Positions 4,061 through 34,509 of a stretch of 43,953 bases of DNA are shown here, piece by piece. Position numbers and translations under genes: made by a program. Source of the stretch: a virus; UHGV virus genome UHGV-0199997, one strand, 5' to 3'. The notes under the pieces were generated by a model. That model saw only the letters and a program-made list of their open reading frames with translations. It made no database searches and had not been told where the DNA came from. Numbering within the stretch: position 1 is the first letter of the stretch; each line of letters opens with the position of its first letter.

Positions 4061-4422
4061 ATATTAACGACTACACGGGCATACCTTACGACTTTCGCAA
4101 ACGCAATTGCTGGCATCACGTGCGCATTGTCCGCGCGGACGCCGGGTTAGACACCCCGGCGTTCGACGTCACAAGCCCTACGGCAATTAACGAAGCGTTT
4201 GACGAAGGTCATCGCAACACAAAGGGGCTTACGAAGATTGATAAGCCTGAAAACTTCTGTGCGGTGCTTATGGGGTATCGCCGTGGTGGTCGTATCGTGT
4301 GGCACGCAGGAGTTTACTTCGACGGGATGGTGAGTCATTGCGAGCTTGCATCCCGTCAGGTACGGCTTGACAGGCTGGCGGATCTCAGAGACACGTACAC
4401 GGAGATTGAATTTTGGCGATAA
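4057..4422 (+). CDS. tail assembly protein K-like, NlpC/P60-type peptidase domain
   Basis: ATGA overlap start; Cys in NCWHH and His in WHAGVYFDGMVSHCE are consistent with an NlpC/P60 catalytic pair as in the lambda gpK C-terminal domain. Confidence 0.55.
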   Translation: MNINDYTGIPYDFRKRNCWHHVRIVRADAGLDTPAFDVTSPTAINEAFDEGHRNTKGLTKIDKPENFCAVLMGYRRGGRIVWHAGVYFDGMVSHCELASRQVRLDRLADLRDTYTEIEFWR

Positions 4423-6968
4423 TCCTGCACTACACGCGAAACGCCGACGGCGCTTTCGACCGTACAAAACACGTCGGGATGCCGATGGAGTTTGTCGTTA
4501 ACCGTATTCCCGACGGCGTGCCTGCGCGAGTCTACCTCGGTGAGATTGGTGATGATACCGACGTAACCGACGACTTCGATGCGCTTAAAGACGAAGACGC
4601 GGTATACCACATTATTGAGGGTGCGGGTAGCGGGGCGCTTGGTGCCGTTAGTAAGGTGTTCGGTTTTATCCTTAAGCCAATCGCCAAGTTGTTCGGCCTG
4701 AACATGTCCGCTAACGCCAACTACACGGCGACTAACAATCAGACAACGTCACCGAACAACAGCCTTACCGACCGCTCAAACAAACCACGCCCTTACGAGC
4801 GCTCTTATGACATCTGCGGTACTGTGCAGACAATCCCTAACGACCTTATGCAGACGTATAAGGCGTTCAACTCAACTGGTGCTTTGCTGGAGTATTCGTA
4901 CTATGACGCGGGACGCGGGCATCTGCATATTGAGGCGGATGGCGTCACAGAAGGCGACACCCTTATAAGCGACATCACGGGTTCTTCTGTTGCCGTGTAC
5001 GCGCCGTATACTTCCCCGAACAACACCGCATCTCCCCAACTACAAATCGGCGACGTCATTGACCAGAAACTCTATGTGACATACTCCAACGACGACGTTG
5101 ACGGTATTGTACTGAAAGCACCAAACGACATCGGAGCTAACCCAAGCGCCGACGGCACCGCTAAACGTATTTCAAACACCGGCTACATTTATGACCCGTC
5201 AGGCGACTCTGCTTTTTCTGAGTTTCTTAGCGTCGGTGATGTCGCGGTGCTGAGCAACTTTGACGTTGCTGATGTCACTAACCTGAACGGCTCGTTTGAG
5301 GTTTTATACGTTGACGACTTCGAAGTAAGATTAGCCGTAAACGGTGCGTCTAACTGGACGGCGTTGACCAGCGGACAGACGTACACCCTAACAGAGCGTT
5401 CAGATACGTTTATTGGCCCGAGCAACACCTATGACGTATCCCTGACAGACTGGTATTACATGGTGCGCGGAGAGGTTGACCGTGTGCTCGCTAACGTAGC
5501 CGGGCAGAACGGCCTATACAAATACGACGGCGGCTATAACCGCACCAGCGTAACCGTAGAACTCCAGTACCAGATGATTGACTCTCAGCGCAACCCGTTG
5601 AGTGATATTTACACGGTACAGGCTACAATTACAGGCAACAATACGGATTACGTCGGTACGTCTATCTACGGACAGTTGCCGACAGCATCTCGTTTCCGCG
5701 CCCGTATGCGCCGTGTAACTAATTTTGACAAGGGCTACGACGGAACGGTAAGTGACGAGATAACCTTCATCAACCTGTACGGGCAGTCGCTGGACACAAC
5801 CCCACACTACGGCAACCGAACTACCGTGCATTGCGCACGTAAACAGACGCCGCGCGCCGCCAGTATCGACAACCCGGAACTACGCATGATTGCTACCGAG
5901 ATGTGCTACAAATACCTCGGCAATGGGGTGTTCGATACGGTAATGACTCCGAACACTCAGGCAGTGCAGTCGCTAATCCGACTGGCCCGAGACCCAGCGG
6001 TTGGTAATCTGAAACTGACAACGGTAAACATGGATAAGTTGCTTGCTGTGCAGGAAGAAATTGAGTCGTATTTCGGAAGTGAATTAGCGGGGCAATTCTG
6101 CTACACGTTCGACGACTACGACACCACGATGCAGGACATTGTTCAGACCATAGCGGAAGCCGTTTTCTGTACCGCATACCGTAAAGGCGCGGATATTATG
6201 TTGCGGTTTGACCGTCCGGTTGCGGGGCCTGAAATGGTGTTCACCCACCGCAGCAAAACTACCGGTACGGAGAAATGGACCCGCACGTTCAACGATTCTA
6301 CGACCTACGATAGCCTGTCGTTCTCGTACATCGACCCGGATACGAATGTACAGGAAACGATTTATATCCCGGAAGAACTCGGTGCAAATACGGAGGAGTA
6401 CGAATCGAAGGGCGTGCGCAACTACCAACAGGCATATTGGCTGGCGTGGCGTCGCTATCAGCGCAACACGTTAAGTAAAGTTGTCGTAGAGTTCGAAGCT
6501 ACGGAAGAAGGCGCTCTCGCTACCCCAGGCGGCGTAATTAGTGTAGTTAAAGGTTCACGTATTGCACCACAGGACGGCTATATTGTTGCCGTTAATGGGC
6601 TTACACTTACGTTATCCCAGCCTGTTACGTTTACTCCTGGCGATGACCACTCCATCATTCTTAAGAAGCGCGATGGCTCGGTGCAGAGTATCTCCGTTAT
6701 CAAAGGAAGCCACGACCGCGAAGTGATTATGCTCTCTGCGCCGGAGGAGGCAATCTACACAGGGAATAGTGCGCTAAAAACTGAGTTTTCATTCGGCAAC
6801 GAAGCAAGGCATAATGCTCAGAAGATAGTTGTTTCTTCAATCGACCCGGGCGACGACCGCACGGTCAAGATTACGGGCTACAACTATGATGACGGATTCT
6901 ATAAATACGACGGCGTCGCGCCATACGGCAGCGGTTTCTCCGACGGATTCAGCAATGGTTTTAATTAA
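4413..6968 (+). CDS. tail tip protein (gpI-like N-terminus fused to gpJ-like host-specificity region)
   Basis: 851-aa ORF; N-terminal ~100 aa (AVYHIIEGAGSGALGAVSKVFGFIL) resembles lambda gpI, the rest is a large beta-rich tip protein. The track start is TTG 4413; ATG 4476 or 4482 are alternatives. Confidence 0.6.
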   Translation: MAIILHYTRNADGAFDRTKHVGMPMEFVVNRIPDGVPARVYLGEIGDDTDVTDDFDALKDEDAVYHIIEGAGSGALGAVSKVFGFILKPIAKLFGLNMSANANYTATNNQTTSPNNSLTDRSNKPRPYERSYDICGTVQTIPNDLMQTYKAFNSTGALLEYSYYDAGRGHLHIEADGVTEGDTLISDITGSSVAVYAPYTSPNNTASPQLQIGDVIDQKLYVTYSNDDVDGIVLKAPNDIGANPSADGTAKRISNTGYIYDPSGDSAFSEFLSVGDVAVLSNFDVADVTNLNGSFEVLYVDDFEVRLAVNGASNWTALTSGQTYTLTERSDTFIGPSNTYDVSLTDWYYMVRGEVDRVLANVAGQNGLYKYDGGYNRTSVTVELQYQMIDSQRNPLSDIYTVQATITGNNTDYVGTSIYGQLPTASRFRARMRRVTNFDKGYDGTVSDEITFINLYGQSLDTTPHYGNRTTVHCARKQTPRAASIDNPELRMIATEMCYKYLGNGVFDTVMTPNTQAVQSLIRLARDPAVGNLKLTTVNMDKLLAVQEEIESYFGSELAGQFCYTFDDYDTTMQDIVQTIAEAVFCTAYRKGADIMLRFDRPVAGPEMVFTHRSKTTGTEKWTRTFNDSTTYDSLSFSYIDPDTNVQETIYIPEELGANTEEYESKGVRNYQQAYWLAWRRYQRNTLSKVVVEFEATEEGALATPGGVISVVKGSRIAPQDGYIVAVNGLTLTLSQPVTFTPGDDHSIILKKRDGSVQSISVIKGSHDREVIMLSAPEEAIYTGNSALKTEFSFGNEARHNAQKIVVSSIDPGDDRTVKITGYNYDDGFYKYDGVAPYGSGFSDGFSNGFN

Positions 6969-6980
6969 AGAGGACTCTAT

Positions 6981-8975
6981 ATGTCAAGCGGATGCGGTGA
7001 CGTTTTAAGCCTGGCGGATTTACAAACCGCCAAGAAACACCAGATTTTTGAAGCTGAGGTTATCACCGGCAAGTCCGGCGGTGTCGCTGGCGGTGCTGAT
7101 ATTGATTATGCGACCAATGCGGTTACAGGGCAGACCCAAAAGACACTACCTGCCGTGTTACGTGACGTGGGCTTCCGCCCGGCGGCATTTACGTTCGCCA
7201 CTGGAGGTACGCTGGGTGTTAATGACGCAGATTTAGCGGTTTTATGGCCTATTTCCGATGGTGGCGATGGTAACTATTACGCGTGGAAAGGCGCGCTGCC
7301 GAAGGTTGTGCCTGCGGCGTCGACCCCTCTAACCACCGGCGGCGTTTCCGATGAGGCTTGGATGCCTGTGACAGAGGCCGCCTTACGTAGTGATTTAGCT
7401 TCCAGTAGTGGGGCTGGTATGATAGGGACTACCTCAGGCGCTACGGTGCAAGATACTATTAATCAAACAGGAACCCAGCAAAAGGATTTACATCCATTTG
7501 TACCAACAGGTTCTTTCGGTTCTGGTGCTTCTTTCACTTCTACACTTCAAGTATTCGAACATAATGGCGAATATTATTCATACAAAGGACCAATTTCACC
7601 AGGTTCTACAGTCCCGGCAACACCATCATCCGATGCAAACTGGAAAAAAGAACCCGTGTCTGACTATATTGAAAATTACGGCGGCGGCGTGCATGTTGCC
7701 GACCAAACACCCGCGATATTAAAAGCTATAGATGCTGGTGTACGACGCATTGTTCTACCCAAGGGTGAGCTTAGGATGTCACCTTGTACCATACCGGGAT
7801 ACACCCAAGGGCTAACTTTTGTAGGTCAAGGTGCTAACCAGGCGTACTCAGGTACTACAGTAATAAAACCGTTGAACGATGGTCAGAACTATATTTTTGG
7901 CTCTGGTGACACTAATGATGGGCAAGATAGTATTAAGTTTGAAAACATCCAGTTCGACGGTGAGTGGCGGTGCAACCACGCCATACTGCATACTCGTGGT
8001 GCCGGTTGGTACTACGAGAAGTTAACTGGCAAGAGATTCAATACGTGGTTTATCTACGACGGTCAAGGACTTGCCAGATTTAGAGATATTTATTGCGAAG
8101 CCACTGATGCATCAGATATCTCAATCCGTGCAACGGGGGGTGGCATACGGGTGTATAGCGACTCTGTCCTGGACACTGTGGAAGTGTACGGAGGAAGCTG
8201 CCCATTAAGGTTATCAGCCGGTGGCAATCGAGCTAGCAATATCTTTTGTAATGGAGGGTATGATATCGGCGCTATAGCTTTAGAGCCACAAGATACTTCA
8301 ACAAATCATATAAACACGGCGTTAAGTAATATATATATAGGTGAGAGTACTAATACATCAGGTGTAGCTATCCCAATTTTAGCACTGTATGGAAACTCCG
8401 TAAGAAAAGTAGAATCTGTGCAAATATCTAACGCTCATTTTGTTCATGCATCAACCACATTGAATACTAACATGACAGTTATAAGGGCTGATAAAGTTAA
8501 TGGTTTTGTTATGTCTTCTTTTGATGCACTTGCCATGGGAGAATACAGCACATCTAGCCGACGTACATATAACTTCCTTAATGCAACTAATTCTACATCT
8601 ATGTTATTTTCTGCTGGCAGTATTAGAGGCGTAAATAATAATCCAATAGTATTGGGTGATGGATGCTCATTGAGCATAGATGCAGTTGAGTTTAATGGCT
8701 GGGGTACAAACTCTGATTCTGGCACTGAAAACAAAGCCGCTATCAGAACCACATCCTCCGATGCAAGGTGCGTGATAGGCTCATCATGTAACTTTACCGC
8801 AAGTCAAACAGACTCATACGCCGTTTGTGCTTATAATGAGTTTACGGTTAGCGCATCGATACTTAACATAAACTATAGTAGTTCTACAATATTCTACCCT
8901 GCTAACGTTAATTACAGTTACATATATAAACGTCCCGGTGGTAAGATAACTTTAGTTAACACTTTTAGTGCGTAG
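6981..8975 (+). CDS. tailspike / tail fiber (receptor-binding protein), mosaic
   Basis: 664-aa ORF with RBS AAGAGGA; GC-rich N-terminal anchor domain followed by an AT-rich, Ser/Thr/Asn/Gly-rich C-terminal part; last gene of the tail operon, followed by a strong terminator. Confidence 0.7.
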   Translation: MSSGCGDVLSLADLQTAKKHQIFEAEVITGKSGGVAGGADIDYATNAVTGQTQKTLPAVLRDVGFRPAAFTFATGGTLGVNDADLAVLWPISDGGDGNYYAWKGALPKVVPAASTPLTTGGVSDEAWMPVTEAALRSDLASSSGAGMIGTTSGATVQDTINQTGTQQKDLHPFVPTGSFGSGASFTSTLQVFEHNGEYYSYKGPISPGSTVPATPSSDANWKKEPVSDYIENYGGGVHVADQTPAILKAIDAGVRRIVLPKGELRMSPCTIPGYTQGLTFVGQGANQAYSGTTVIKPLNDGQNYIFGSGDTNDGQDSIKFENIQFDGEWRCNHAILHTRGAGWYYEKLTGKRFNTWFIYDGQGLARFRDIYCEATDASDISIRATGGGIRVYSDSVLDTVEVYGGSCPLRLSAGGNRASNIFCNGGYDIGAIALEPQDTSTNHINTALSNIYIGESTNTSGVAIPILALYGNSVRKVESVQISNAHFVHASTTLNTNMTVIRADKVNGFVMSSFDALAMGEYSTSSRRTYNFLNATNSTSMLFSAGSIRGVNNNPIVLGDGCSLSIDAVEFNGWGTNSDSGTENKAAIRTTSSDARCVIGSSCNFTASQTDSYAVCAYNEFTVSASILNINYSSSTIFYPANVNYSYIYKRPGGKITLVNTFSA

Positions 8976-8979
8976 AAAT

Positions 8980-9005
8980 AAGGCCCCGAAAGGGGCCTTT
9001 TCTCT
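8980..9005. terminator. bidirectional rho-independent terminator
   Basis: AGGCCCC-GAAA-GGGGCCT stem-loop followed by TTTCTCT; sits between the convergent tailspike gene and the minus-strand replication operon. Confidence 0.7.
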
Positions 9006-9141
9006 ACTCTTCTGATACCTTCTCCAGTACAAACGCCAGTTGCGCATTAGCGGCATCTCTTTGCTGCCGTAGTCGTAGAACCTCTTCTTCAAGTTCCTTG
9101 ATACGTTTTTGTAATGCCGGAATCGGGGCTATGATGTTCAT
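9004..9141 (-). CDS. small coiled-coil protein (45 aa), not in the ORF track
   Basis: MNIIAPIPALQKRIKELEEEVLRLRQQRDAANAQLAFVLEKVSEE; its ATG overlaps the TGA of the upstream primase-like gene (ATGA), suggesting translational coupling. Confidence 0.35.
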   Translation of the reverse strand: MNIIAPIPALQKRIKELEEEVLRLRQQRDAANAQLAFVLEKVSEE

Positions 9142-9653
9142 CTGGTAAATTTCCTCGCAAGATACGTTATTTCTTCTTCACAAAGTTCATCAAGGTCATT
9201 TGACACAAATCCTCTGGTGAATGTTTTGCTGAACTTTAAGCCCGCTTTATCATTGTCACCGGCGCACACCCATTCATACGGCAAAAGTGACATTTGCTGC
9301 CGTAAGTCCGCTGGTATGTTCGACCCCAATGCGCTAACTGCATTAAACCCGCAATTCATCAAAGCAACAGCTTTAAATATGCTTTCGGTAACAAATACCA
9401 CCCCGCTACTCGGCAAATACTCAAGTCCCCATAAACACGGCCTTGTTGTTCGGGTATAGTACCGCGCGTCTTTATGGTTCTTGCAGTTCTTTTCGGCGTG
9501 TGGTTTGTAGTGCTGGTACCCGCGAAGCCTACCGTCAAATCCCCACAGGTAAAACGTAGCTACTCCAGGGCCTAAGACTACACGTAAACGGTCCGCGTCA
9601 AAACCTCGTGACAGCAGATGTGCCTTAAGTAGTAACTCCTCGCTGCCCATCAT
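9138..9653 (-). CDS. TOPRIM-domain primase-like protein
   Basis: TOPRIM signature: conserved Glu in FVTESIF and DxD in CAGDNDKAG; ATGA overlap with the helicase stop. Confidence 0.6.
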   Translation of the reverse strand: MMGSEELLLKAHLLSRGFDADRLRVVLGPGVATFYLWGFDGRLRGYQHYKPHAEKNCKNHKDARYYTRTTRPCLWGLEYLPSSGVVFVTESIFKAVALMNCGFNAVSALGSNIPADLRQQMSLLPYEWVCAGDNDKAGLKFSKTFTRGFVSNDLDELCEEEITYLARKFTR

Positions 9654-11074
9654 TTCTTACCTCGTCTCTTCATGTAGTTAAGCAACTCTTCCTGCACCGA
9701 TTTCTTCTCATCAGTACGCGCGGCAACAACCTCGTCAAGAGTGTCTTTGGCAACGATATGATAGAGGAACACCGGGCGCTCGTGGCCTGCCTGTTTCTGG
9801 CGGACTGGGCCTATGCGCTCGACAACCTGCAAATAGTGCTCAAGGTTCCACCCTGGCGAAATAAACGCCAGATGATGCCCGCCGTCCTGTAAATTGAGGC
9901 CGTGGCCCGCCGACGCAGGATGCACGCATAAGATTTCGATTTCGCCGCGGTTCCACGCTTCCATCTGCTTATTACCCTTAGCGCCTTTGGCGAACGCCTG
10001 CGCCTGCGGGAATCGTTTAAGGATGCGCTCCAGTTCATGCTTGAACTGATAGGCGACTAGCAACGGTGCACCCTGCAACTCTTCCACAATGGACTCCAGT
10101 GCGTCCAGTTTCGTGTCGTGCACTTTCTCCCAGTCTTTCGTTGCTTCGCCGTCCGGCCCTGACACATACACGGCACCGGATGCAATCTGAAGGCACTTAG
10201 ATGTCTTCGCCGCCGCGTTAGCCGCTTCAACTTCCCCGCTCTCCAGCTCCGCGAATAGCTTCTCCTCCATATCGATGTACGCCTGACGTGCTTTCTTCGG
10301 CAGGTCGATTTCAACCGGTACGATAATCGGCGCTTCACATCCGAACCACTCGGCGGCGTCAATCGTGAGACTAATGTCCTTCATCTTCTGGTGAATCTCG
10401 GTATCCGCCCCCGGGCGGGCATGGTACTCGCGTGCCATCGCCGACTTACCTTTCTGTACCGAGTTAAACCAGCGGTCTGTGAATGCCGTGTATGAAGACC
10501 CCAAGCGCTCTCCTGCGTCGATAAACCAGTTCTGGCCCCACAAGTCCTTGAGGCCGTTCGGTGATGGTGTGCCAGTCAGGTTGATAAAACGCTTAACCTT
10601 ACCGAAAGCAACCTTGCTAAGAGCCTTTGCGCGCTTGCTTCCACCTGAACGGCTGCGGAACGATTTAAGCTTCGTGCTTTCATCGGCAACGATAACCGTA
10701 AAAGGCCAGTCGTCTTTGCCGTAGTAGTCAATCAGCCACTCGATAACTTCGTAGTTTGTGCACACCACGTTAGCGTCTGACTCCAGTGCCGCGATGCGAC
10801 GCCTCTCGCTACCTGTTGCATCTACGACACTCAGGCATGGAAATCGCCATTTCTCTTGTTCTGCGGGCCATGTGCCGGATGCGACGCGCAACGGAGCGAG
10901 GATTAACACGCGGTCGTCGTCCGTAAGCTGCCCGTTGCGGAACAGTCTGTTTAACGTCCACAGTACGCTGCCAGTCTTCCCGGCACCCATGCTTGCCCAT
11001 ATGTTGCAGCGATGGTGCCGCAACATGAACGAGGTAATGAGCTTCTGGTACTCGCGCCTTTGAAACTTACTCAT
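9650..11074 (-). CDS. SNF2/DEAD-like superfamily II helicase
   Basis: Walker A in ASMGAGKTGS, DEAH-type box in IVADESTKLK, C-terminal helicase motifs. Confidence 0.85.
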   Translation of the reverse strand: MSKFQRREYQKLITSFMLRHHRCNIWASMGAGKTGSVLWTLNRLFRNGQLTDDDRVLILAPLRVASGTWPAEQEKWRFPCLSVVDATGSERRRIAALESDANVVCTNYEVIEWLIDYYGKDDWPFTVIVADESTKLKSFRSRSGGSKRAKALSKVAFGKVKRFINLTGTPSPNGLKDLWGQNWFIDAGERLGSSYTAFTDRWFNSVQKGKSAMAREYHARPGADTEIHQKMKDISLTIDAAEWFGCEAPIIVPVEIDLPKKARQAYIDMEEKLFAELESGEVEAANAAAKTSKCLQIASGAVYVSGPDGEATKDWEKVHDTKLDALESIVEELQGAPLLVAYQFKHELERILKRFPQAQAFAKGAKGNKQMEAWNRGEIEILCVHPASAGHGLNLQDGGHHLAFISPGWNLEHYLQVVERIGPVRQKQAGHERPVFLYHIVAKDTLDEVVAARTDEKKSVQEELLNYMKRRGKK

Positions 11075-11903
11075 TTACAGCCCCCATGAACGCCTTTATA
11101 AATTCAGCGGCTACTTGCGGGACGATGGCATTGCCGTAACCGCGCAATCGTCCCACTCTGGCGGGTATCCCATTAGCCAGCGGGAATGTGCCGGGTTCAA
11201 CTGGCCGGAACTTTCCATCCCTGCATCCGAGCCAGTCAGCATCCGACCAGAAGCTGCGATTCGGATTGCCCCCACGAGGTAGCATTGATTGTGCAGATTG
11301 TTCGGGTCTCTTTTTGTTTCCGCCTCGCTGTAGCTGCCGTGACGCGAATTCTGAACCGTCGGCGTCCCCCATGCCGCTTTCAGTCCCTGCTCTGTTGAGT
11401 AGTCCAGCCTGTCGAATGTTCTGTCCTTCCCGTCCTTGCGAATCACTGTCTCTCCGCTCCCTTTGTGATCGTTCGCTGTCGGTGTCGGCCAGTTGGTACG
11501 CACCAAAGAAGAGTCGTTCTCTTTTATGCGGAGCGCCGACGCTACAAGCTGGGAGTACGGCAAACCCGACGGCGTAGTCTTCTCCTTCCAGGTGAGTTTG
11601 TAAATCGCACATCCACGATTTTGCAATTGCTGGCGCAACCTGTTCCCCAAAGAGGACTGGAGGGTGGCACTCGCTGATGAGGTCGAGGAAGACTGGCGCG
11701 AGGTGTCTCGGGTCGAACTGTCCGAGTTGTTTTCCTGCCGCGCTAAACGGTTGGCAAGGCGGGCTTCCCGTCCAGAGAGGCGTATCTTCCGAAACTCCCG
11801 CAAGTCTGAGCGCGAGAGGCCAGCCGCCGATGCCAGCGAAAAAAATGACACTGGGTGAACCCGTCAAGGTCTTCTGGCTTAACTTCGGTAATGCTTCTTT
11901 CAT
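11067..11903 (-). CDS. DNA (cytosine-5)-methyltransferase, frame-disrupted
   Basis: This frame carries motif I (FFAGIGGW), motif IV (PPCQPFSAAGK), ENV-like (FGEQV), motif VIII (PHKRERLFF) and motif X (GYGNAIVPQV); the target-recognition region and motif IX lie in an overlapping frame (11111-11851) and the N-terminus in a third frame (11743-11991). Confidence 0.65.
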   Translation of the reverse strand: MKEALPKLSQKTLTGSPSVIFFAGIGGWPLALRLAGVSEDTPLWTGSPPCQPFSAAGKQLGQFDPRHLAPVFLDLISECHPPVLFGEQVAPAIAKSWMCDLQTHLEGEDYAVGFAVLPACSVGAPHKRERLFFGAYQLADTDSERSQRERRDSDSQGREGQNIRQAGLLNRAGTESGMGDADGSEFASRQLQRGGNKKRPEQSAQSMLPRGGNPNRSFWSDADWLGCRDGKFRPVEPGTFPLANGIPARVGRLRGYGNAIVPQVAAEFIKAFMGAVNE

Positions 11904-17100: not shown

Positions 17101-17369
17101 ACTCTGCTCTCCCACTGGTCAATTAAATGTCGCGTCTTATGGTCGCAGTGCATCGCCCACCCGTACATCGACTCGAAGACATAAAAGTCAGGTTTGGCGA
17201 AAGTCGTGCGTTTAATCTGCGACACATGACGGCCTATATCTTTATGCCGTGGTACTTTGCCTAAGTATGCCATCTCTTCCATCTGGTGCGCACCTGACGT
17301 CGCACGCAATAGCCACAACGCCTCGGTGTTATCCCGCCTGTCTACGGCGCGGTAGAGTTGGTAAATCAT
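17097..17369 (-). CDS. hypothetical protein (90 aa)
   Basis: ORF translationally coupled to the exonuclease gene. Confidence 0.45.
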   Translation of the reverse strand: MIYQLYRAVDRRDNTEALWLLRATSGAHQMEEMAYLGKVPRHKDIGRHVSQIKRTTFAKPDFYVFESMYGWAMHCDHKTRHLIDQWESRV

Positions 17370-17412
17370 AATTCCGACCCTCAGTTAAAGCGGCCCGAAG
17401 GCCGCGAGATAG

Positions 17413-17883
17413 TTATTCTTCTTCGAAATACTTGTTCTTGATTGCTGTCAAGCGTTCCAGGTATTCAGCCAGGTCTTCGTCTTTAATCGCAGCAATCTTC
17501 ATCTTCTTGCCGGTGAACTCTTCCAGCAGTTCATCTGAATCATCGCACGCGGCATCGCTAGGACCTTCGTTAATAGCATCGTCGATAGCCTGAATCTGGT
17601 CACGCAGAGACTGGTAATCTACCTCTTCCTTCTCTTCTTCCGGCTCTGGCGTTGGTTCCTCTACTTTAGCTTTACGCGGCTTGCGTTTCGGCTTCTCTTC
17701 TTCTGCCGGTTTAGTGTCGACGATGTCTTCACCTTCGACCGGGATTTCTTTTGTTGCTTCTTTTACAACATTAGGCTCAATTGTTGCGGTTTCAGCAACG
17801 ACAACTTGTTTCGCACTGTTCGCAGCAATCAGTTCATGTGCAACTACGAAACGTTCCAGTAATACTAAGAATTTCTCTAACAT
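17413..17883 (-). CDS. acidic hypothetical protein
   Basis: 156 aa with a Glu/Pro/Lys-rich low-complexity centre; RBS GAGGAGAG; first gene of the leftward operon, divergent from the XRE gene. Confidence 0.5.
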   Translation of the reverse strand: MLEKFLVLLERFVVAHELIAANSAKQVVVAETATIEPNVVKEATKEIPVEGEDIVDTKPAEEEKPKRKPRKAKVEEPTPEPEEEKEEVDYQSLRDQIQAIDDAINEGPSDAACDDSDELLEEFTGKKMKIAAIKDEDLAEYLERLTAIKNKYFEEE

Positions 17884-17916
17884 TTGTTTCTCTCCTCTCG
17901 TTTGGTATGCACTAAC

Positions 17917-17935
17917 TATAATAGCTAACTATTCA
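17917..17935 (+). promoter_or_regulatory. palindromic operator-like element in a divergent promoter region
   Basis: TATAATAGCTAACTATTCA contains AATAG-N4-CTATT; a near copy lies at 15821-15840; sits between the divergent genes at 17883 (-) and 18009 (+). Confidence 0.35.
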
Positions 17936-18008
17936 TTATGTCAATGGGCTTTTCTAAAATAATTAATATGGTACTATTCACATATCAACTGACTAAGGAG
18001 TAATTGAC

Positions 18009-18224
18009 ATGCAACCATCTGAACTAGGCATCCGTGTAGAACAACGCCGTAAAGAACTCGGTATCTCCCAGCGCCGTCTGGCGGTCCTGGCCGGTGTTTC
18101 CCAGGGCGCGATTAACCAGCTGGCACTTGGAGTAACTCAGGACGTCCGCCCGGCGACGCTGTTCAAGCTGGCGGAAGTGCTGGAAGTAGACGCCAAGTGG
18201 CTGGCGTTCGGTGAAGGGGCTTAA
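18009..18224 (+). CDS. XRE-family HTH transcriptional regulator (Cro/CI-like)
   Basis: 71 aa; HTH core ISQRRLAVLAGVSQGAINQL. Confidence 0.8.
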   Translation: MQPSELGIRVEQRRKELGISQRRLAVLAGVSQGAINQLALGVTQDVRPATLFKLAEVLEVDAKWLAFGEGA

Positions 18225-18375: not shown

Positions 18376-20633
18376 TCCAAATCCTCATCTGTCACCACCA
18401 GCATTTCATTCGGTTCGTATATTGTCTTCGGAATTTTGTTGTCGTTTATACCCCACGGCAGCCGGTACTGCTTAGGTATAGGTCTGTTGTTGCCATCCAG
18501 ACCTGAGACGATAACCCCAGCCTCGTGCATCTCTTCCAGTTTCTTTCTAAGGTCGTTATTGGCGTTAATTGGTACGCCATAACTATCTTCTTTCGCGGCT
18601 TTGACGATAGCCGACATAGAGAACCCTCGCTTATCGTCGCCCTGCTCCTGCAATTTACCCAATGCGTAAATAACCGTAGCCTCTTTGGTGTCCAGTTTCT
18701 CGAACTGGCCTACCTTTTCTTTAACGGCTTCCTTCTGTTCGTCGGTCATACCTTCTACTTTCTTCACGAAGACAGAGAAGGCGTTAAAGTTAACAAAGAC
18801 ATCGATGTGCGGGTTTCCTGCGTCAAAATCGCGGACATCATCACTACTGTACCCTTCCGGAAGACCCATGAAGTTGTGAGTTGGCTCTTTCTTTTTCGGT
18901 GGCTCCGCTATCTGAATCTTCTGTATTACAAATCCTCTGGCTTTCTGCCGTTCTCCGTTTCGGTTCTTTATGTGATACAGGTTTATCCCTAAGTTATTGT
19001 CGTTGTCAGGCTTATGCAGGAACATCCCGTTATCGATGGAGTTGTGAAAGTCACTTCCACCCTTCGGCATCATGCCGTTTTCCGACGGTACTGTTTCGTC
19101 GATGTTTTTAGTCGGGTGCACCATAGCACCTACCGCGGCGTTAAGCGTCGACGCTATTTCGTTAAGTGCCTGCGCCGCTTCTTTCATTGACCTGTTGTCG
19201 TTTTCGTCAAAGCCAGGTATGCAAGTTTGCAGGGTATCAAACGTAACCTTTACAATTTTCTCTTCACCGGCAACACGGCGCATCATTCTCACCACCTGAC
19301 GTCGCCATGCTTCGTCGAGTAAGTTACATCCCTCCGCAACACAATCGATAATGTGCAAGCGGTCCAAGTTATCGCCGAGGGCAATCTGCAAAGATTTTTT
19401 ATGTCGCTCGAACGACCGCACACCTTCACCCGCAAAAATAAACGCATGACCTTCCGCTACCTCAGCCCCGCCGAACGCATATCTTTTTTCGGCAGCAATA
19501 GCGGCGTCAATCGCCATACTAAATGTTGACTTACCGGTATGCGACTTTGCACAAATGTAGAATGATTCGTTAGTCTGCATAAGACCATCTACGACGGAGT
19601 ATGCAGGTTCTTTTTCTAATTCCGGCTCGTCTTCAAGGTCTTCCAGCGTGCAAGTTACAGGTTCCTCGTTCTCTGTGCGGTGCAGTTCTTCAATCTCTTC
19701 ATCAGGTAAATCAGGCAGAGCCGCGCGAATGCTGTTAACGCTGATAGGTTGCTTGTCTACGTTAAGCTCGTCAGGTAGACCACACATACGCAGGGCCAAA
19801 TGCTGCCTACGGTTAAGCTCGGTGCAAGCGCCGTTGTTTGTATGCTGGCAGACAAAGCGCACTTCTTTACCGTCTAGCATGATGCTGGTGGAGCCTTTGC
19901 CTGTGTGCAGATGTTCGTTAGGGCATGGCACTTCGTACCCGCGCCCGGAAGATAAAGCATCAAGCCCAAGCTCGGCTTCGCAGAAATGCGCTATATCTGC
20001 GTTAAGCCCATGCTCATCGGCAGCAAGTGTCTTGGCTTCGCGTTTACGCAACCCCATCTCTTCGGCTTTCTTGATGTACCGCTCGGCACGGATAACACGC
20101 CCCTCTGTAACCGTTATCTTCGACTCTTTATGCGGCAGGTAGATAAGGCGGTTGCCATCTTCTGTGCAGTGGTCACGCAGCGATTCATCTATTTCTAACT
20201 CTGCACAAATAGCCCGTTGCACCATCCACGCATCGTTAGAGTTAAACGGAGTGCGAGCCGGAACCAGAACGCGGAATGCGTAATCCCCGTTTTTACACGC
20301 GTGCTGATGCGATGCCGTTGTGTGCAGAATATTGAAGAACGGCGCGTTCTTGAATTTGCGTGTCAGGTCGCGGTACTGAGTACGGTTGAGATGGTCGAAG
20401 TCGAACTTAACCACACTGTCTTCCAGAATCGCATTCTTACGGCGACCGCCAACAGGAGCAATAGCCTTCTGCTTAATCTTAGCCGCGTCGTATTCTTCCT
20501 TAGTCCACGACGGGTCCACGGACAAACGCTTCGATGTATCGCAGACGTACTCTACAAACTGCTCCAGCGGCATTTCACGTGCTACAGGGTTTTTATCGAA
20601 TGTGTTACGCAGCGTTGCAAAAACAATATTCAT
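18372..20633 (-). CDS. replication protein, primase/helicase-like P-loop NTPase
   Basis: 753 aa; Walker A in AKSHTGKST followed by a RecA-like region; Cys/His-rich segment (CPNEH...CQHTNNGAC) in the N-terminal half. Confidence 0.65.
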   Translation of the reverse strand: MNIVFATLRNTFDKNPVAREMPLEQFVEYVCDTSKRLSVDPSWTKEEYDAAKIKQKAIAPVGGRRKNAILEDSVVKFDFDHLNRTQYRDLTRKFKNAPFFNILHTTASHQHACKNGDYAFRVLVPARTPFNSNDAWMVQRAICAELEIDESLRDHCTEDGNRLIYLPHKESKITVTEGRVIRAERYIKKAEEMGLRKREAKTLAADEHGLNADIAHFCEAELGLDALSSGRGYEVPCPNEHLHTGKGSTSIMLDGKEVRFVCQHTNNGACTELNRRQHLALRMCGLPDELNVDKQPISVNSIRAALPDLPDEEIEELHRTENEEPVTCTLEDLEDEPELEKEPAYSVVDGLMQTNESFYICAKSHTGKSTFSMAIDAAIAAEKRYAFGGAEVAEGHAFIFAGEGVRSFERHKKSLQIALGDNLDRLHIIDCVAEGCNLLDEAWRRQVVRMMRRVAGEEKIVKVTFDTLQTCIPGFDENDNRSMKEAAQALNEIASTLNAAVGAMVHPTKNIDETVPSENGMMPKGGSDFHNSIDNGMFLHKPDNDNNLGINLYHIKNRNGERQKARGFVIQKIQIAEPPKKKEPTHNFMGLPEGYSSDDVRDFDAGNPHIDVFVNFNAFSVFVKKVEGMTDEQKEAVKEKVGQFEKLDTKEATVIYALGKLQEQGDDKRGFSMSAIVKAAKEDSYGVPINANNDLRKKLEEMHEAGVIVSGLDGNNRPIPKQYRLPWGINDNKIPKTIYEPNEMLVVTDEDLE

Positions 20634-20758
20634 TTCTTTTTCTCCGCACGTTCTAAGGCTTCCTGCATACGACGCATTGCGCGGTTCATCTTTACCGGTG
20701 CGAAGAAATCAGCGCCGTGTTTCTGGCGGCGTAGCTGTGGAACTATTAACTTCGTCAT
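20630..20758 (-). CDS. small basic protein (42 aa), not in the ORF track
   Basis: MTKLIVPQLRRQKHGADFFAPVKMNRAMRRMQEALERAEKKK; RBS AAGGA 7 nt before the ATG; its stop overlaps the ATG of the downstream gene (ATGA). Confidence 0.4.
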   Translation of the reverse strand: MTKLIVPQLRRQKHGADFFAPVKMNRAMRRMQEALERAEKKK

Positions 20759-20826
20759 TGTATAATCCTTGTGCTTACTTTGATGATTTGTACTTTAACC
20801 CCGACGTTCTGGCGTTGGGGTTTCTT

Positions 20827-21039
20827 TTATTTATCGCCTGCAAACCACGCGTGCGCAGAATCATAGAAACGACATTTACTTAACATGTCTACCGGCATCT
20901 TAATAATGCGCGTCGGTTCCGACAAATGATTAGGTTTACATATTTCTGCATAGAATCCGCTGTCGGTAATTTCTGACGCAAACTTAAACCAGTATTTAAC
21001 TTTACCGTTCTCAAAGTAACAACCCATACGCCCAATCAT
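20827..21039 (-). CDS. hypothetical protein (70 aa)
   Basis: ORF with ATGA coupling to the upstream HTH gene. Confidence 0.45.
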   Translation of the reverse strand: MIGRMGCYFENGKVKYWFKFASEITDSGFYAEICKPNHLSEPTRIIKMPVDMLSKCRFYDSAHAWFAGDK

Positions 21040-21218
21040 TTCACGTTCTCCTTAATCCACGCTTCAACTTTATTACGGTCAAATGTTCCAGGTAAACGGC
21101 GGCCCATAACCTTAATACAACAGTCGGGGAATTTACCACTGCGTAACCAGTTATTAATTGTCTGACGTGTCACCCCAATACGTTCTGCTACTTCATTCTG
21201 GGTCATGTAATGTTGCAT
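21036..21218 (-). CDS. small HTH DNA-binding protein (AlpA/excisionase-like fold)
   Basis: MTQNEVAERIGVTRQTINNWLRSGKFP helix-turn-helix; ATG 21218 with RBS AGGAG; divergent from the early rightward operon. The track start is 21290. Confidence 0.55.
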   Translation of the reverse strand: MQHYMTQNEVAERIGVTRQTINNWLRSGKFPDCCIKVMGRRLPGTFDRNKVEAWIKENVK

Positions 21219-21325
21219 TTTTATATCTCCTGTTTGTTTAGTGAAGCCAAGTATAGGATAGCGTGAATGTAAAAGCAACCAAAACACCACACAAAGTTAC
21301 TAAGATACAAAAGATGCTACTGGTA

Positions 21326-21470
21326 TTGACTTTTACTAAGAAATATGCTAAGCTCGTCCTGAGCTTGTGAAGTATGAACAAGCGACCGCGGTGCGCGGCA
21401 GGCGAAACGAGCACGTCTCGACGTGTGGAGTGAGTCTCGCTGGCGCATTCGGAAGGGCCATAGTCTATTG
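21326..21470 (+). promoter_or_regulatory. promoter (TTGACT-N17-TAAGCT) plus conserved leader element, copy 1
   Basis: -35 at 21326-21331 and -10 at 21349-21354; 34-nt block identical to copy 2 at 21358-21391 containing a perfect hairpin GCTTGT-N9-ACAAGC; second conserved block at 21448-21470. Confidence 0.5.
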
Positions 21471-21541
21471 TTATTCCCGCCTAAGTATCTAAGTTACTGA
21501 TTTGACGTAGGTTAGAACCGCAAGCTCACTCACTCACTCTT

Positions 21542-21573
21542 GGTGCCTTCGGCACCCCGTTCGTTTCGTTTCG
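21542..21573 (+). terminator. hairpin with U-rich tail (weak terminator) closing the copy 1 leader
   Basis: GGTGCC-TTC-GGCACC followed by CCGTTCGTTTCGTTTCG. Confidence 0.35.
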
Positions 21574-21623
21574 CTCGCTACCCTATTACACGAAAGAATC
21601 ACAACGGCAACGTAACTATTCTC

Positions 21624-21659
21624 TTGCACACCCCAATATAATAGGATACTATTCACTTA
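21624..21659 (+). promoter_or_regulatory. conserved promoter element (TTGCAC-N17-TACTATTCACTTA)
   Basis: One of at least five near-identical ~36-bp elements, each 25-40 bp upstream of an RBS and start codon; this one precedes the gene at 21687. Confidence 0.5.
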
Positions 21660-21686
21660 TCGAAACGAGACAGAGGAGTGAGGGTT

Positions 21687-21878
21687 ATGTTTAAAAAGGG
21701 TCAGTTGGTTAAATGCGCCGACGGTAAACACGGTGTGATTGAATTAAAATCCGCTTTATTTCCGGGAGAGTACGTAGTTACTGTGCAAAAGGTGAGAGGA
21801 GTAAATTCGGTGGTATACGTAGCGGAAGAGAATTTAAAGCTAATCGGCAACAATTTTAAATTCAAAGGGGCGAAGTGA
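21687..21878 (+). CDS. hypothetical early protein
   Basis: RBS GAGGAGTGAGGG before ATG 21687; first gene of the rightward early operon. Confidence 0.55.
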   Translation: MFKKGQLVKCADGKHGVIELKSALFPGEYVVTVQKVRGVNSVVYVAEENLKLIGNNFKFKGAK

Positions 21879-22084
21879 TGGACGAATTATTCGAAGAACT
21901 GAAACATCATAAACTGGAGAAAGTGCATTTCCAGGTAAACAGATACGAGGTTATTTTATTCGACGGCCCAACTATTTCTTCCGGGGTATGGAAGGACCTG
22001 CTAAAAGTTTTACGTGCGCTACGAACGGCATCGAATCATGATGCCAGTGCCGACGACTCTGAGGGAGTTGCCGTTAATGAATAA
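21875..22084 (+). CDS. hypothetical protein
   Basis: GTG 21875 or ATG 21878, overlapping the upstream stop. Confidence 0.45.
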   Translation: MMDELFEELKHHKLEKVHFQVNRYEVILFDGPTISSGVWKDLLKVLRALRTASNHDASADDSEGVAVNE

Positions 22085-22343
22085 CGCTGAACTGGAAAAA
22101 GTCTCCGACACTCTTCATAAGGTACGGGTCATGCGTCGGGGTGCTGGGCTGGAGCAGTTTTATAACATGTGGCGCACCGCGACGCGCGACCATGAGTTTC
22201 TGCGAACAGGTTATTATTTCACTAAAGGCATTATCCCGATTCGCGCACGCGGGGATTACGGATGGGTTCGCGAGACACCTAATCTTATGTGGTGCTGGTA
22301 CTGCGGTGAGTTCTGGGTGCACGTTAAAGAGAAGATGGGGTGA
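22077..22343 (+). CDS. hypothetical protein
   Basis: ATG 22077 inside track ORF 22014-22343, overlapping the end of the upstream gene. Confidence 0.45.
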   Translation: MNNAELEKVSDTLHKVRVMRRGAGLEQFYNMWRTATRDHEFLRTGYYFTKGIIPIRARGDYGWVRETPNLMWCWYCGEFWVHVKEKMG

Positions 22344-33233: not shown

Positions 33234-33694
33234 TGATGGGCTTTTTCAAAGTAACTGATGTACCGTCGCGTCGCGTAGTCCAGTACGCCCGCGTGTCTGG
33301 CTCCGGCGAGAACGTAGTATTTATTGAGGATGAAAGTGTACTAGGTACACCAGTAGACGATATGCCGTTTGCGGATAAGACAGGCATCGCACTTCCTGCG
33401 GCAGGTATGCTTTATGAGATTCCGTATCTGGCTGATGCGGGTGATGTGTATTTCTCCGAGCAACCGAAAGATGCGGAACTGGTAGACGGCAGCGCAACCC
33501 TCACTGTCGAAGTTAAAGCAGGTGAAGCGCCGTATACACTGACCTGGTACAAAGACGGTAAGGAAGTGGTAAACGCCCCGGAAGAGGCCTTGTCTCTGAC
33601 GGTCAATGCAGTTGGTGAATACTTCGTTAAGGTTACTGATGCCGATGGTGTAGATGCGGTAAGTAAAGCGGCGAAGGTTACTAAGCCAGAATGA
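33233..33694 (+). CDS. Ig-like domain protein (putative virion decoration)
   Basis: C-terminal Ig-like segment TLTVEVKAGEAPYTLTWYKDGKEV...GEYFVKVTDADG. Confidence 0.5.
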   Translation: MMGFFKVTDVPSRRVVQYARVSGSGENVVFIEDESVLGTPVDDMPFADKTGIALPAAGMLYEIPYLADAGDVYFSEQPKDAELVDGSATLTVEVKAGEAPYTLTWYKDGKEVVNAPEEALSLTVNAVGEYFVKVTDADGVDAVSKAAKVTKPE

Positions 33695-33697
33695 TAA

Positions 33698-33727
33698 AAG
33701 GCCCCTTATGGGGCCTTAATTTTATTT
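33698..33727. terminator. bidirectional rho-independent terminator
   Basis: AAGGCCCC-TTAT-GGGGCCTT followed by AATTTTATTT; shared by the convergent genes 33233-33694 (+) and 33722-34243 (-). Confidence 0.65.
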
Positions 33728-34243
33728 AAATCGCGCTGGCATTAGCACCATAAATGCAGTGTTTGAAAATGATATTTTGCATCCTCTGATTTGGTCCTGG
33801 AAATCGAAACGAGCGATTTCATTTTTGTATGCCTTAGAAATCTTGTGCGCGTCCGCCAAGTAGCGCAGGGTGAACCCTATGCTGTCAACCGCCCCCGGCG
33901 TGATGTGCGCCACACGTCTCCAGTCAGGAAACCTTCCGTCTACAACATCTACCGGAAGTGTACATATAAGCGCACGACTATCGTCATAGAAAGAAACGCT
34001 GCTGTTGTCGTGGTCTACTTCCGCGTAGTTAAATTTAGAAGGCTCTCTCCCTTTGATGTCTATGAGAACCGCATTCTCAACGTTTGTCTTAACGTTGTCG
34101 CAGAACAATCTATGACCGTCCGTAGACACTATCAATCCCTCCGGGTCTATGTAAAAAGCATTCAAATAATAGCGCACATCATTTTTAGCTCTGCATATTT
34201 TTGCCCCTACATACGCAGGGAAAGTAATTACTGTAGTAGCCAT
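33722..34243 (-). CDS. DnaN (beta sliding clamp)-like mini-protein
   Basis: 173 aa; VSTDGHRLF matches the conserved DnaN TDGHRL motif and the C-terminus FMVLMPARF matches the DnaN YVVMPMRL tail; own promoter element upstream; RBS GAGGAGGAG. Confidence 0.55.
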   Translation of the reverse strand: MATTVITFPAYVGAKICRAKNDVRYYLNAFYIDPEGLIVSTDGHRLFCDNVKTNVENAVLIDIKGREPSKFNYAEVDHDNSSVSFYDDSRALICTLPVDVVDGRFPDWRRVAHITPGAVDSIGFTLRYLADAHKISKAYKNEIARFDFQDQIRGCKISFSNTAFMVLMPARFK

Positions 34244-34264
34244 TTTAACTCCTCCTCGTTTCGA

Positions 34265-34300
34265 TAACTGAATAGTACCCTATTATGTTGGGGTGTGCAA
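34265..34300 (-). promoter_or_regulatory. conserved promoter element (TTGCAC-N17-TACTATTCAGTTA), minus orientation
   Basis: Member of the element family; immediately upstream of the DnaN-like gene. Confidence 0.5.
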
Positions 34301-34366
34301 ACTATTTATTAGCCTATTCCAGTTATTCCGCTCAATTGTAAATGTTGGAATAAACTATTCGAATAG

Positions 34367-34509
34367 TTGACTTTTCACTAAAAATATGCTAAGCTCCACC
34401 TGAGCTTGTGAAGTATGAACAAGCGACCGCGGCGCGGGCAGGTAACGGAGCGGGACGTAAGTCCTGAGTGTAGTTACGCTGACGCGTTCGGAAGGGCCAT
34501 ACTCTATTG
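34367..34509 (+). promoter_or_regulatory. promoter (TTGACT-N17-TAAGCT) plus conserved leader element, copy 2
   Basis: -35 at 34367-34372 and -10 at 34390-34395; conserved blocks at 34399-34432 and 34487-34509 are identical or near-identical to copy 1. Confidence 0.5.

Follow-up and report, generated by a model that had tools for sequence, protein, structure and literature searches.

A sharp compositional break in a Kagunavirus-like tailspike gene marks the probable graft point of a mobile receptor-binding cassette

The tailspike gene of virus genome UHGV-0199997 changes abruptly in base composition within its coding sequence, raising the question of whether the two sides of the break share one history. 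We analysed the whole 43,953-nucleotide (nt) stretch, hereafter the window; it amounts to an essentially complete Kagunavirus-like siphophage genome (Guernseyvirinae), and the features discussed below are listed in Table 1. Our answer is that the gene very probably encodes a chimeric tailspike of the depolymerase type, in which the lineage's own anchor carries a horizontally mobile beta-helix cassette. This cassette most likely binds and cleaves an enterobacterial O-antigen, with that of Escherichia coli O125 as a tentative candidate.

The open reading frame (ORF) in question occupies the slot annotated as tailspike in phages CR01, Golestan, Bas75 and Jersey. It is preceded by the gene for an 851-amino-acid (aa) tail protein and followed by a convergent replication module on the minus strand. 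The larger genes of the window match tape measure, tail protein, primase, SNF2-type helicase, DNA polymerase, helicase-primase, terminase, portal and major head families, and the window as a whole is ~89-91% identical at the nt level to E. coli Kagunavirus genomes (SCS92, NTEC3, Golestan, CR01, Bas72-75) over 60-70% of its length.

The initial annotation placed a sharp break in GC content near position 7440. A likelihood change-point scan of 4413-9137 located one significant break within ~10 nt of that point, at nt 7450, where GC content falls from 0.525 to 0.424 (permutation p<=0.005). Ahead of the break, the first ~150 codons have the genome-typical composition that had been described (0.558 over 6981-7448 vs a window mean of 0.507); beyond it, GC content is 0.419 over 7449-8972. 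At sliding sizes of 468, 732 and 1524 nt, the minimum of all 43,953 nt lies inside the tailspike gene each time (8231-8698, 8241-8972 and 7451-8974). Codon usage differs too, as had been noted. The GC content at third codon positions (GC3) is 0.519 over 6981-7448, and at 0.378 for the whole gene it is the lowest among 28 long ORFs. On an index resembling the codon adaptation index (CAI-like), with the other window genes as reference, codons 158-664 score 0.623, vs a minimum of 0.731 over all 507-codon segments of the other genes.

The GC-rich side of the break holds the conserved Guernseyvirinae-type anchor ('MSSGCGDVLSLADLQTAKKHQIFEAEVITGK...'), and the gene is flanked by that of the tail protein and by the convergent replication module. 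Residues 1-138 match the PHROG tail spike family phrog_29731 (E 7.8e-77), and the Pfam PF18668 and PHROG tail-spike matches all fall within residues 1-150, an N-terminal particle-binding domain distinct from the body. Up to residue 138 or 166, tblastn finds 77-80% aa identity to Guernseyvirinae tailspikes, with no match beyond. The anchor had been called conserved, which holds at the aa level but not uniformly in the DNA: nt homology to the chassis stops at 7174 for CR01 and Golestan, at 7303 for Bas75 and at 7361 for Jersey (70-74%), and resumes only at 8970-8973, the stop codon. The anchor is thus itself a sub-mosaic, with 6981-7174 86% identical to Kagunavirus CR01/Golestan and the remainder 74-80% identical to Bas75 and Jerseyvirus types. 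Its PF18668 core region is common to the anchors of several phage genera. Matches in a PDB sequence search with the whole protein were confined to residues 57-163 (8x8m, 9d84, 9lna, 5w6h, 4oj5), giving no solved relative of the body by sequence. A Pfam scan of the window protein at E<=1 returned PF18668 alone, with no match to the P22 head-binding domain PF09008 and no RTX nonapeptide repeats (HemolysinCabind); the protein is neither a tailspike of the P22 type nor an RTX protein.

Beyond the break, the relatives are different ones. Residues 151-664 match positions 500-1011 of the 1013 in phrog_34776 (E 6e-264, 879 bits, hmmscan), and blastn homology to all carriers of the sequence begins at 7476-7489 and ends at 8965-8967. 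From these common limits we define the exchangeable unit as nt ~7476-8967. The closest carriers are a 656-aa protein (P0005; cassette 90% nt identity) on ~47-kb T1-like siphophage contigs with ERF, SSB and HNH genes, and a 744-aa protein (P0012; 88%) of a T7-like podophage (gp13-16, ocr, RNA polymerase), which combines the PF03906 T7 tail-fibre N-terminus with PF18668. Three 642-aa proteins of E. coli prophages (P0011, P0014, P0016) carry the cassette behind the P22 head-binding N-terminus PF09008, which is also found in P0024; a P22-like prophage at argW in E. coli NCTC8623 has it at 83% nt identity. More distant copies come from two prophages, one a lambdoid element of Citrobacter freundii (CP057319) and the other a remnant near fliE (P0022, 654 aa, 69% identity; locus L019, a Logan ERR1015383 contig, next to fliE/fliF and yedD), the two together spanning 69-74% aa identity over the body by BLASTP. 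Tailspike protein 4 (TSP4) of Kuttervirus matches at 72-73% aa identity with 99-100% coverage (tblastn) and 68% at the nt level, and an 838-aa protein of the Braunvirinae phage vB_EcoS_FP at 54% aa. In all, at least six phage types unrelated to the window phage hold the cassette.

Anchor and body have completely decoupled identities across the 31 homologues (12-49% for the anchor, up to 93% for the body), as expected of the horizontally exchanged receptor-binding module on a virion-attachment domain that the initial annotation had proposed. The opposite pattern, with both halves matching the same homologues at similar identity, was looked for and is clearly absent. In P0005, P0011, P0012 and P0014, residues 170-664 are 83-93% identical to the window protein, while residues 1-157 are 17-49% identical and belong to different anchor domains. 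No single GenBank phage record covers 80% or more of window positions 6000-10000, and the Kagunavirus and Jerseyvirus relatives match the flanks only. Likewise, the cassette was not found in deposited Guernseyvirinae genomes, and neither megablast nor blastn found a close (>70% nt) copy among deposited phages; the closer relatives come from a metagenome and genome protein collection. The family is small, with 1.84 billion proteins yielding 65 clusters at 50% identity, and it is under strong purifying selection (ratio of nonsynonymous to synonymous substitution rates, dN/dS, 0.11-0.14 vs the three closest carriers).

The cassette is also internally mosaic. It is 100% identical in aa to P0005 over residues 260-440 and 67-93% over residues 170-260; against P0014, identity is 97-100% over residues 320-440 and 53% over 590-635. 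In P0026-28, identity drops from ~100% to ~40% past residue ~385. Such alignments suggest sub-domain exchange that could shift specificity.

The 5' junction can be followed at both the protein and DNA level. The neck motif 'SGAGMIGTTSGATVQ' is present in Kagunavirus anchors and in the Kuttervirus and T7-like carriers, and all carriers of the PF18668 type have a neck of the form '...LRSxLxSxxGAGxxGTxxGxTVQ', then a short helix, then 'LHPFVP(S/T)G'. The window protein is Guernseyvirinae-like to about 'TVQ' (residue 157) and resembles the cassette carriers from 'DLHPFVP' (residues 167-170). Sliding nt identity flips from anchor relatives to cassette relatives within 7353-7473, and with the alignments the homology switch spans 7353-7486; the GC change point at 7450 lies inside both intervals. 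Nt identity with the closest carriers then climbs from ~0.62 at 7476-7565 to 0.93-0.99 over ~7840-8050. The crossover maps to a zone of ~120 nt and not to a single base, none of the five carriers in the nt alignment being similar enough across 7326-7480. Exchange of receptor-binding domains across genera has been described before, with conserved DNA motifs ending the Kagunavirus and Kuttervirus anchors proposed as recombination hotspots (PMC10408124), and the anatomy of the junction fits this model.

On the 3' side, the homology arm shared with the chassis begins with a strong hairpin directly after the tailspike stop codon; Golestan and Bas75 have it in near-identical form and Jersey in a similar one. 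It lies between the tailspike gene and a convergent 45-aa minus-strand ORF, and is probably a bidirectional terminator. A consensus terminator scan missed it; direct folding confirmed the hairpin. The T1-like (locus L008, ~9972-10012) and T7-like (locus L010, ~10236-10275) carriers also have mutually similar terminator-like sequence right after the cassette stop, TAAAAATAACCCCGCTTCGGCGGGGTTATTTTTATCATCAG, which differs from that of the window and may be 'motif three' of PMC10408124. In these carriers the terminator may be part of the unit of exchange, whereas in the window phage the 3' arm is the Kagunavirus terminator.

We propose the following sequence of events. The anchor (residues 1-~157), ending in the neck motif GAGxxGTxxGxTVQ common to many tailspike anchors, would fix the presumably trimeric spike to the tail tip. 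The cassette (residues ~166-662) would move between phages by recombination, with an upstream crossover in or just after the neck motif and a downstream crossover at the stop codon and terminator. It has had a long history outside the Kagunavirus chassis and keeps a GC content of ~0.39-0.42 in every genome that carries it, giving a sharp break in composition and codon usage in a genome of 51% GC. By analogy with P22, HK620, Sf6 and CBA120, its beta-helix would bind and cleave the host O-antigen, allowing the virion to descend to the outer membrane and setting the host range. The break, the junction, the sharing of a cassette with fixed limits, its purifying selection and the beta-helix fold come directly from our analysis, while trimer formation, enzymatic cleavage, the O-antigen as substrate and O125 are inferred.

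Structure prediction returned the kind of fold that the initial annotation expected of a depolymerase. In a monomer model from AlphaFold2 built with 32 homologues (mean predicted local distance difference test score, pLDDT, 79), the body scores 85-97 and consists of successive short strands, with a central right-handed parallel beta-helix as the predicted fold. The pLDDT falls below 50 for residues 132-174, which suggests a flexible linker. Foldseek ranks TSP3, TSP1 and TSP4 of phage CBA120 highest. The likeness of the body to CBA120 TSP1-4, HK620, Sf6, phi29 gp12, K5 lyase and the AlgE4 A-module is structural, with sequence identities of 8-16%; because the body has no sequence relative in the PDB, active site and substrate are not transferable from these solved beta-helix proteins. 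Four acidic residues are invariant in the 32-sequence alignment (D241, D316, D394, E455) and two are nearly so (D326, D398), and all six are kept in the TSP4 of phage PhiSH19. We regard the four invariant ones as candidate catalytic residues only.

What might such a protein bind? In all three temperate carriers the cassette adjoins genes that modify the O-antigen: gtrABC in two, and in the third (L019, 8001-11734) the carrier gene is followed directly by an O-acetyltransferase gene of the OafA/Oac-like type (Acyl_transf_3+SGNH). In the two gtr carriers, the cassette and gtrC-gtrB-gtrA form a collinear 4.7-kb block with 73.7% nt identity (L007 5947-10655, from NCTC8623, vs L018 10424-15121, from CP057319). 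One of these is a P22-like podophage prophage and the other a lambdoid siphophage prophage; their GtrC proteins are 73% identical, and gtrC has a GC content of 0.295. Recognition and modification of the same receptor appear to move as one unit in temperate carriers, and this linkage supports the O-antigen as the receptor of the cassette. The tailspikes of P22-like prophages are also classically O-antigen specific, as in P22, Sf6 and HK620. A capsule or exopolysaccharide target, or a lyase or non-cleaving binder in place of a glycoside hydrolase, would be compatible with the fold, which alone does not separate hydrolase from lyase. Given the gtrABC or O-acetyltransferase genes beside every temperate copy and the classical specificity of P22-like prophage tailspikes, we consider such a target or activity improbable, although it is the strongest of the alternatives.

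The choice of O-antigen is a more tentative matter. Among 5,426 complete E. coli genomes, the cassette occurs in one, NCTC8623, the only lysogen whose serotype could be obtained; the draft contigs do not include the O-antigen locus. The O-antigen locus of NCTC8623 has wzx and wzy annotated as O125 family as well as genes of the GDP-fucose and GDP-mannose pathways, and PMC5704137 lists it as an O125 strain. From this single, mosaic relative, the O125 O-antigen emerges as a possible receptor of the subgroup at 83-93% identity that includes the window phage, an assignment we put at somewhat less than even. A literature search combining O125 with tailspikes found nothing relevant.

For the Kuttervirus proteins, the target of EP75 gp169 and SPTD1 TSP4 has been called elusive (PMC8217332, PMC9965104); an untested commensal host or a non-functional domain was weighed by the authors, with one of the two papers suggesting the latter. 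A non-functional TSP4 body is argued against here by the purifying selection on the family, and by the window protein being the sole tailspike-type protein identified among the larger ORFs scanned in its phage. One could go further and suppose jointly that the window phage and its relatives at 83-93% target O125, that the TSP4 body of Kuttervirus (EP75, SPTD1, PhiSH19, SJ3, moki, ST-W77) works as a depolymerase on O125 or on an enterobacterial O-antigen of related chemistry, and that the module travels with its cognate gtrABC as a low-GC unit in temperate phages. Taken together, these suppositions strike us as doubtful.

The Kuttervirus relationship also bears on where the cassette came from. 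The C-terminal ~495 residues of TSP4 (EP75 gp169/PhiSH19 gp139/SPTD1/SJ3/moki/ST-W77 type, phrog_34776) are homologous end to end with the window protein, and the two proteins also agree in the PF18668/neck region and in how the body begins ('LHPFVP'). However, TSP4 has 1013 aa with an N-terminal part of ~430 residues that the window protein lacks, so that alignment to PhiSH19 gp139 begins at residue 428. This N-terminal part comprises baseplate-anchor and gp10-like XD domains (PMC8217332, PMC8825819). The window protein is therefore not a TSP4 as a whole; the baseplate anchor and XD1-XD3 have no equivalent, and the receptor-binding module alone is common to both. Close Kuttervirus homologues are reported to form oligomers that resist sodium dodecyl sulfate and become monomers on heating (PMC8217332). 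They have been deposited as 'haemolysin-type calcium binding protein', a name probably carried over from AlgE-like beta-helix similarity. We also considered TSP4-1 of phage S117, another orphan TSP4 (PMC8432352); because S117 is not among the tblastn matches, its protein is probably of a different subtype.

A recent, direct acquisition from Kuttervirus (Ackermannviridae) TSP4 might explain the drop towards a GC content of ~0.43-0.44. Among deposited phage genomes, full-length matches come from the TSP4 proteins alone, the GC content of the PhiSH19 tailspike locus is 0.435, and the PF18668/neck region is common to Kuttervirus and Kagunavirus anchors. Yet the two cassettes are only 68% identical in nt and 73% in aa, with saturated synonymous sites (proportion of nonsynonymous differences, pN, 0.19), and the E. 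coli copies in T1-like, T7-like and P22-like phages are far closer (83-90% nt). Even in PhiSH19, the sole Kuttervirus locus measured, the cassette (0.404) lies below its chassis (0.435) in GC content. We therefore think a Kuttervirus donor of this kind very unlikely.

Low GC content is a property of the cassette itself and does not build up along the window gene. It is 0.385-0.425 in all six chassis measured, while the surrounding DNA ranges from 0.42 to 0.51; this constancy indicates an intrinsic composition, long maintained by the module, and not a recent arrival from a particular donor. Because the cassette stays low whatever surrounds it, the break is conspicuous only in the GC-richer chassis, namely the window phage and the T7-like phage. 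Long residence beside AT-rich O-antigen-modification genes might explain this composition.

Could the gene have descended vertically, its AT-rich part reflecting no more than the Asn/Ser/Thr/Ile-rich composition of a beta-helix and the relaxed codon selection of a rapidly evolving receptor-binding domain? Serine, threonine and asparagine (S+T+N) make up 34% of the distal part, GC content at codon positions 1 and 2 falls from 0.577 to 0.462, and other Guernseyvirinae tailspike bodies also lie below the GC content of their chassis. But GC3 falls as well, from 0.519 to 0.335, and phages of other morphotypes carry the body at 83-93% identity behind unrelated anchors. No similarity is detectable between the body and those of the closest Kagunavirus genomes, although the flanks of these genomes are 90% identical, and the cassette has the same boundaries in five chassis. 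Descent without any transfer is already contradicted by the decoupled identities and is, in our judgement, slightly less credible even than the Kuttervirus donor.

Amino-acid composition does contribute to a second, weaker step. The initial annotation described a progressive AT enrichment that becomes strong after ~8240, and the best internal split does fall at 8238, but the profile is one sharp step plus a weak one (p=0.02, or p=0.14 when downstream DNA is added). GC content is 0.458 over 7449-8240 and 0.377 over 8241-8972; across the step, S+T+N climbs from 21% to 34% and GC content at codon positions 1 and 2 falls from 0.498 to 0.422. GC3 drops there too, from 0.379 to 0.287, but the best split of a GC3-only scan lies elsewhere. 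Among the cassette copies, the step is present in the P22-like one, weak in the T1-like and T7-like ones, and absent or reversed in those of Kuttervirus and Citrobacter. It partly tracks amino-acid composition. We rejected the 8238 step as a sub-module recombination boundary, because the intragenic mosaic breakpoints (residue ~385 in P0026-28, ~575 in P0014) lie elsewhere and some homologues lack the step. The Ser/Thr/Asn-rich, beta-strand-like repeats reported for this region are real as a compositional bias of the distal part but are not sequence repeats; Tandem Repeats Finder found none in the tailspike gene beyond a trivial 21-nt, 1.9-copy array at 8325-8364, and the periodicity is structural, that of beta-helix coils.

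An assembly chimera of two phages co-occurring in a metagenome can be set aside almost entirely: although the exact protein is known solely from metagenome assemblies and an nr record ('MAG TPA: tailspike protein [Bacteriophage sp.]'), the identical 664-aa sequence has the same gene neighbourhood on each of at least 8 contigs, drawn from different samples, assemblers and independent assemblies (ENA, JGI, Logan), three diverged siblings (P0002-P0004, 93-95% identity) have the same anchor and architecture, and the intact reading frame is under purifying selection, which together indicate that the graft is fixed in the lineage.

Several observations nevertheless weigh against a mobile cassette with an O-antigen receptor. 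Other Guernseyvirinae tailspikes also show an anchor-to-body drop in GC content, if a weaker one (bodies 0.44-0.49), and part of the effect may be general to beta-helix receptor modules through their amino-acid composition and not a foreign signature. None of the sampled sequences has high nt identity across the 5' junction, every cassette carrier reaching only 62-72% over 7476-7625; this low identity is why the crossover is mapped no more finely than ~120 nt, and it means that the event is not recent or that the partner was not sampled. The closest copies point to no one obvious source, being spread over E. coli phages and prophages whose morphotypes differ from that of the window phage, and neither a donor lineage nor a direction of transfer can be named. 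The structure was predicted as a monomer, with no catalytic site located in three dimensions, and purified EP75 TSP4, a 73% relative, gave no halo on any strain tested (PMC8217332). Finally, O125 is assigned from a single lysogen, whose copy is 83% identical in nt and mosaic (53% aa over residues 590-635).

Compared with known systems, the window protein is a Guernseyvirinae tailspike by anchor and position, and its body belongs with the EP75-gp169-type module. The tailspikes of Kagunavirus golestan (gp30), Bas75 (Bas75_0033), CR01 and Jerseyvirus share its gene position, terminator and flanks, with 62-80% aa identity over the N-terminal ~140-165 residues, but their bodies are unrelated to that of the window protein and to one another. 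In K1-type Kagunavirus, the tailspikes are K1-specific endosialidases. The P22-like prophage tailspike of NCTC8623 (WP_250185911.1; cluster P0014, 74 member sequences) has the same cassette at 83-86% aa identity, but with a PF09008 N-terminus and without the PF18668 region, in a temperate phage with gtrABC downstream. Tailspike bodies are well known to be exchanged as modules between phage families (PMC10408124, PMC8432352, PMC8217332), and the window protein was itself already on record as a tailspike from a metagenome-assembled genome. Our analysis adds the fixed boundaries over seven chassis, the constant low GC content, the co-travelling gtr block and the O125 hypothesis.

Swapping of tailspike modules is the main way in which O-antigen-specific phages change host, and the basis for host-range engineering. 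The window locus is an ordinary but unusually clean example from nature: one 1.5-kb cassette with fixed boundaries is found in seven virion architectures, and its compositional scar marks the graft point within ~10 nt, which supports the use of GC change points as a guide to engineering-competent junctions. The TSP4 body of the EP75/SPTD1 type becomes part of a widespread family under purifying selection. E. coli O125 is a serogroup associated with enteropathogenic E. coli, and offers a concrete lead for phages that food biocontrol and diagnostics already employ.

Table 1. Features of the tailspike locus in the window (aa ranges refer to the 664-aa protein).
Feature	Position	Strand	Evidence
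Tailspike gene, 664 aa, ATG start, last gene of the tail module	6981..8975	+	ORF list, PF18668, PHROG 'tail spike protein', synteny
Virion-attachment (anchor) module, aa 1-156, GC 0.558 (genome-typical)	6981..7448	+	phrog_29731, tblastn, nt boundaries, GC
Tail_spike_N (PF18668) core, aa 96-131, 'ALPKVVPAASTPLTTGG...'	7266..7373	+	Pfam E 9.9e-13
Junction/linker, aa 157-168, 'QDTINQTGTQQK', right after neck motif 'SGAGMIGTTSGATVQ'	7449..7485	+	alignments, nt switch, change point, pLDDT
Exchangeable receptor-binding cassette, aa ~166-662 (predicted capping region, right-handed parallel beta-helix and C-terminal beta domain), GC ~0.42	7476..8967	+	
Distal part of the cassette, aa ~420-664, GC ~0.377, Ser/Thr/Asn-rich (34%)	8238..8972	+	best internal split, amino-acid composition
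Hairpin, probable terminator, AAGGCCCC-GAAA-GGGGCCTT then TTCTCT	8980..9005	.	sequence, RNA fold -22.9 kcal/mol, z -5.6

Some features of the surrounding genome are also worth recording. The start of the upstream tail protein gene is ambiguous, either TTG at 4413 (851 aa) or ATG at 4479 (829 aa), and gene callers disagree on it in the sibling contigs. The minus-strand replication module next to the tailspike gene comprises the 45-aa ORF, a primase/toprim gene (9138-9653) and a helicase gene (9650-11074). The toprim/primase-like gene has a below-average GC content at its 3' end (0.42-0.45 over 9100-9400) and, in Bas75-type relatives, whose homology skips 9141-9650, it is missing or another sequence takes its place; the region beside the tailspike gene is a second variable spot. 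Other low-GC stretches of the window lie at 20591-22114 (0.436), 33661-34392 (0.423) and 17341-18072 (0.444); the first coincides with a change in the sign of GC skew near 21 kb and is probably where two divergent transcription units meet. Finally, a DNA methylase ORF on the minus strand (11067-11903; PF00145 in a sibling contig) has the lowest CAI-like score among the long ORFs (0.592) despite a GC content of 0.564, and may be another acquired gene.

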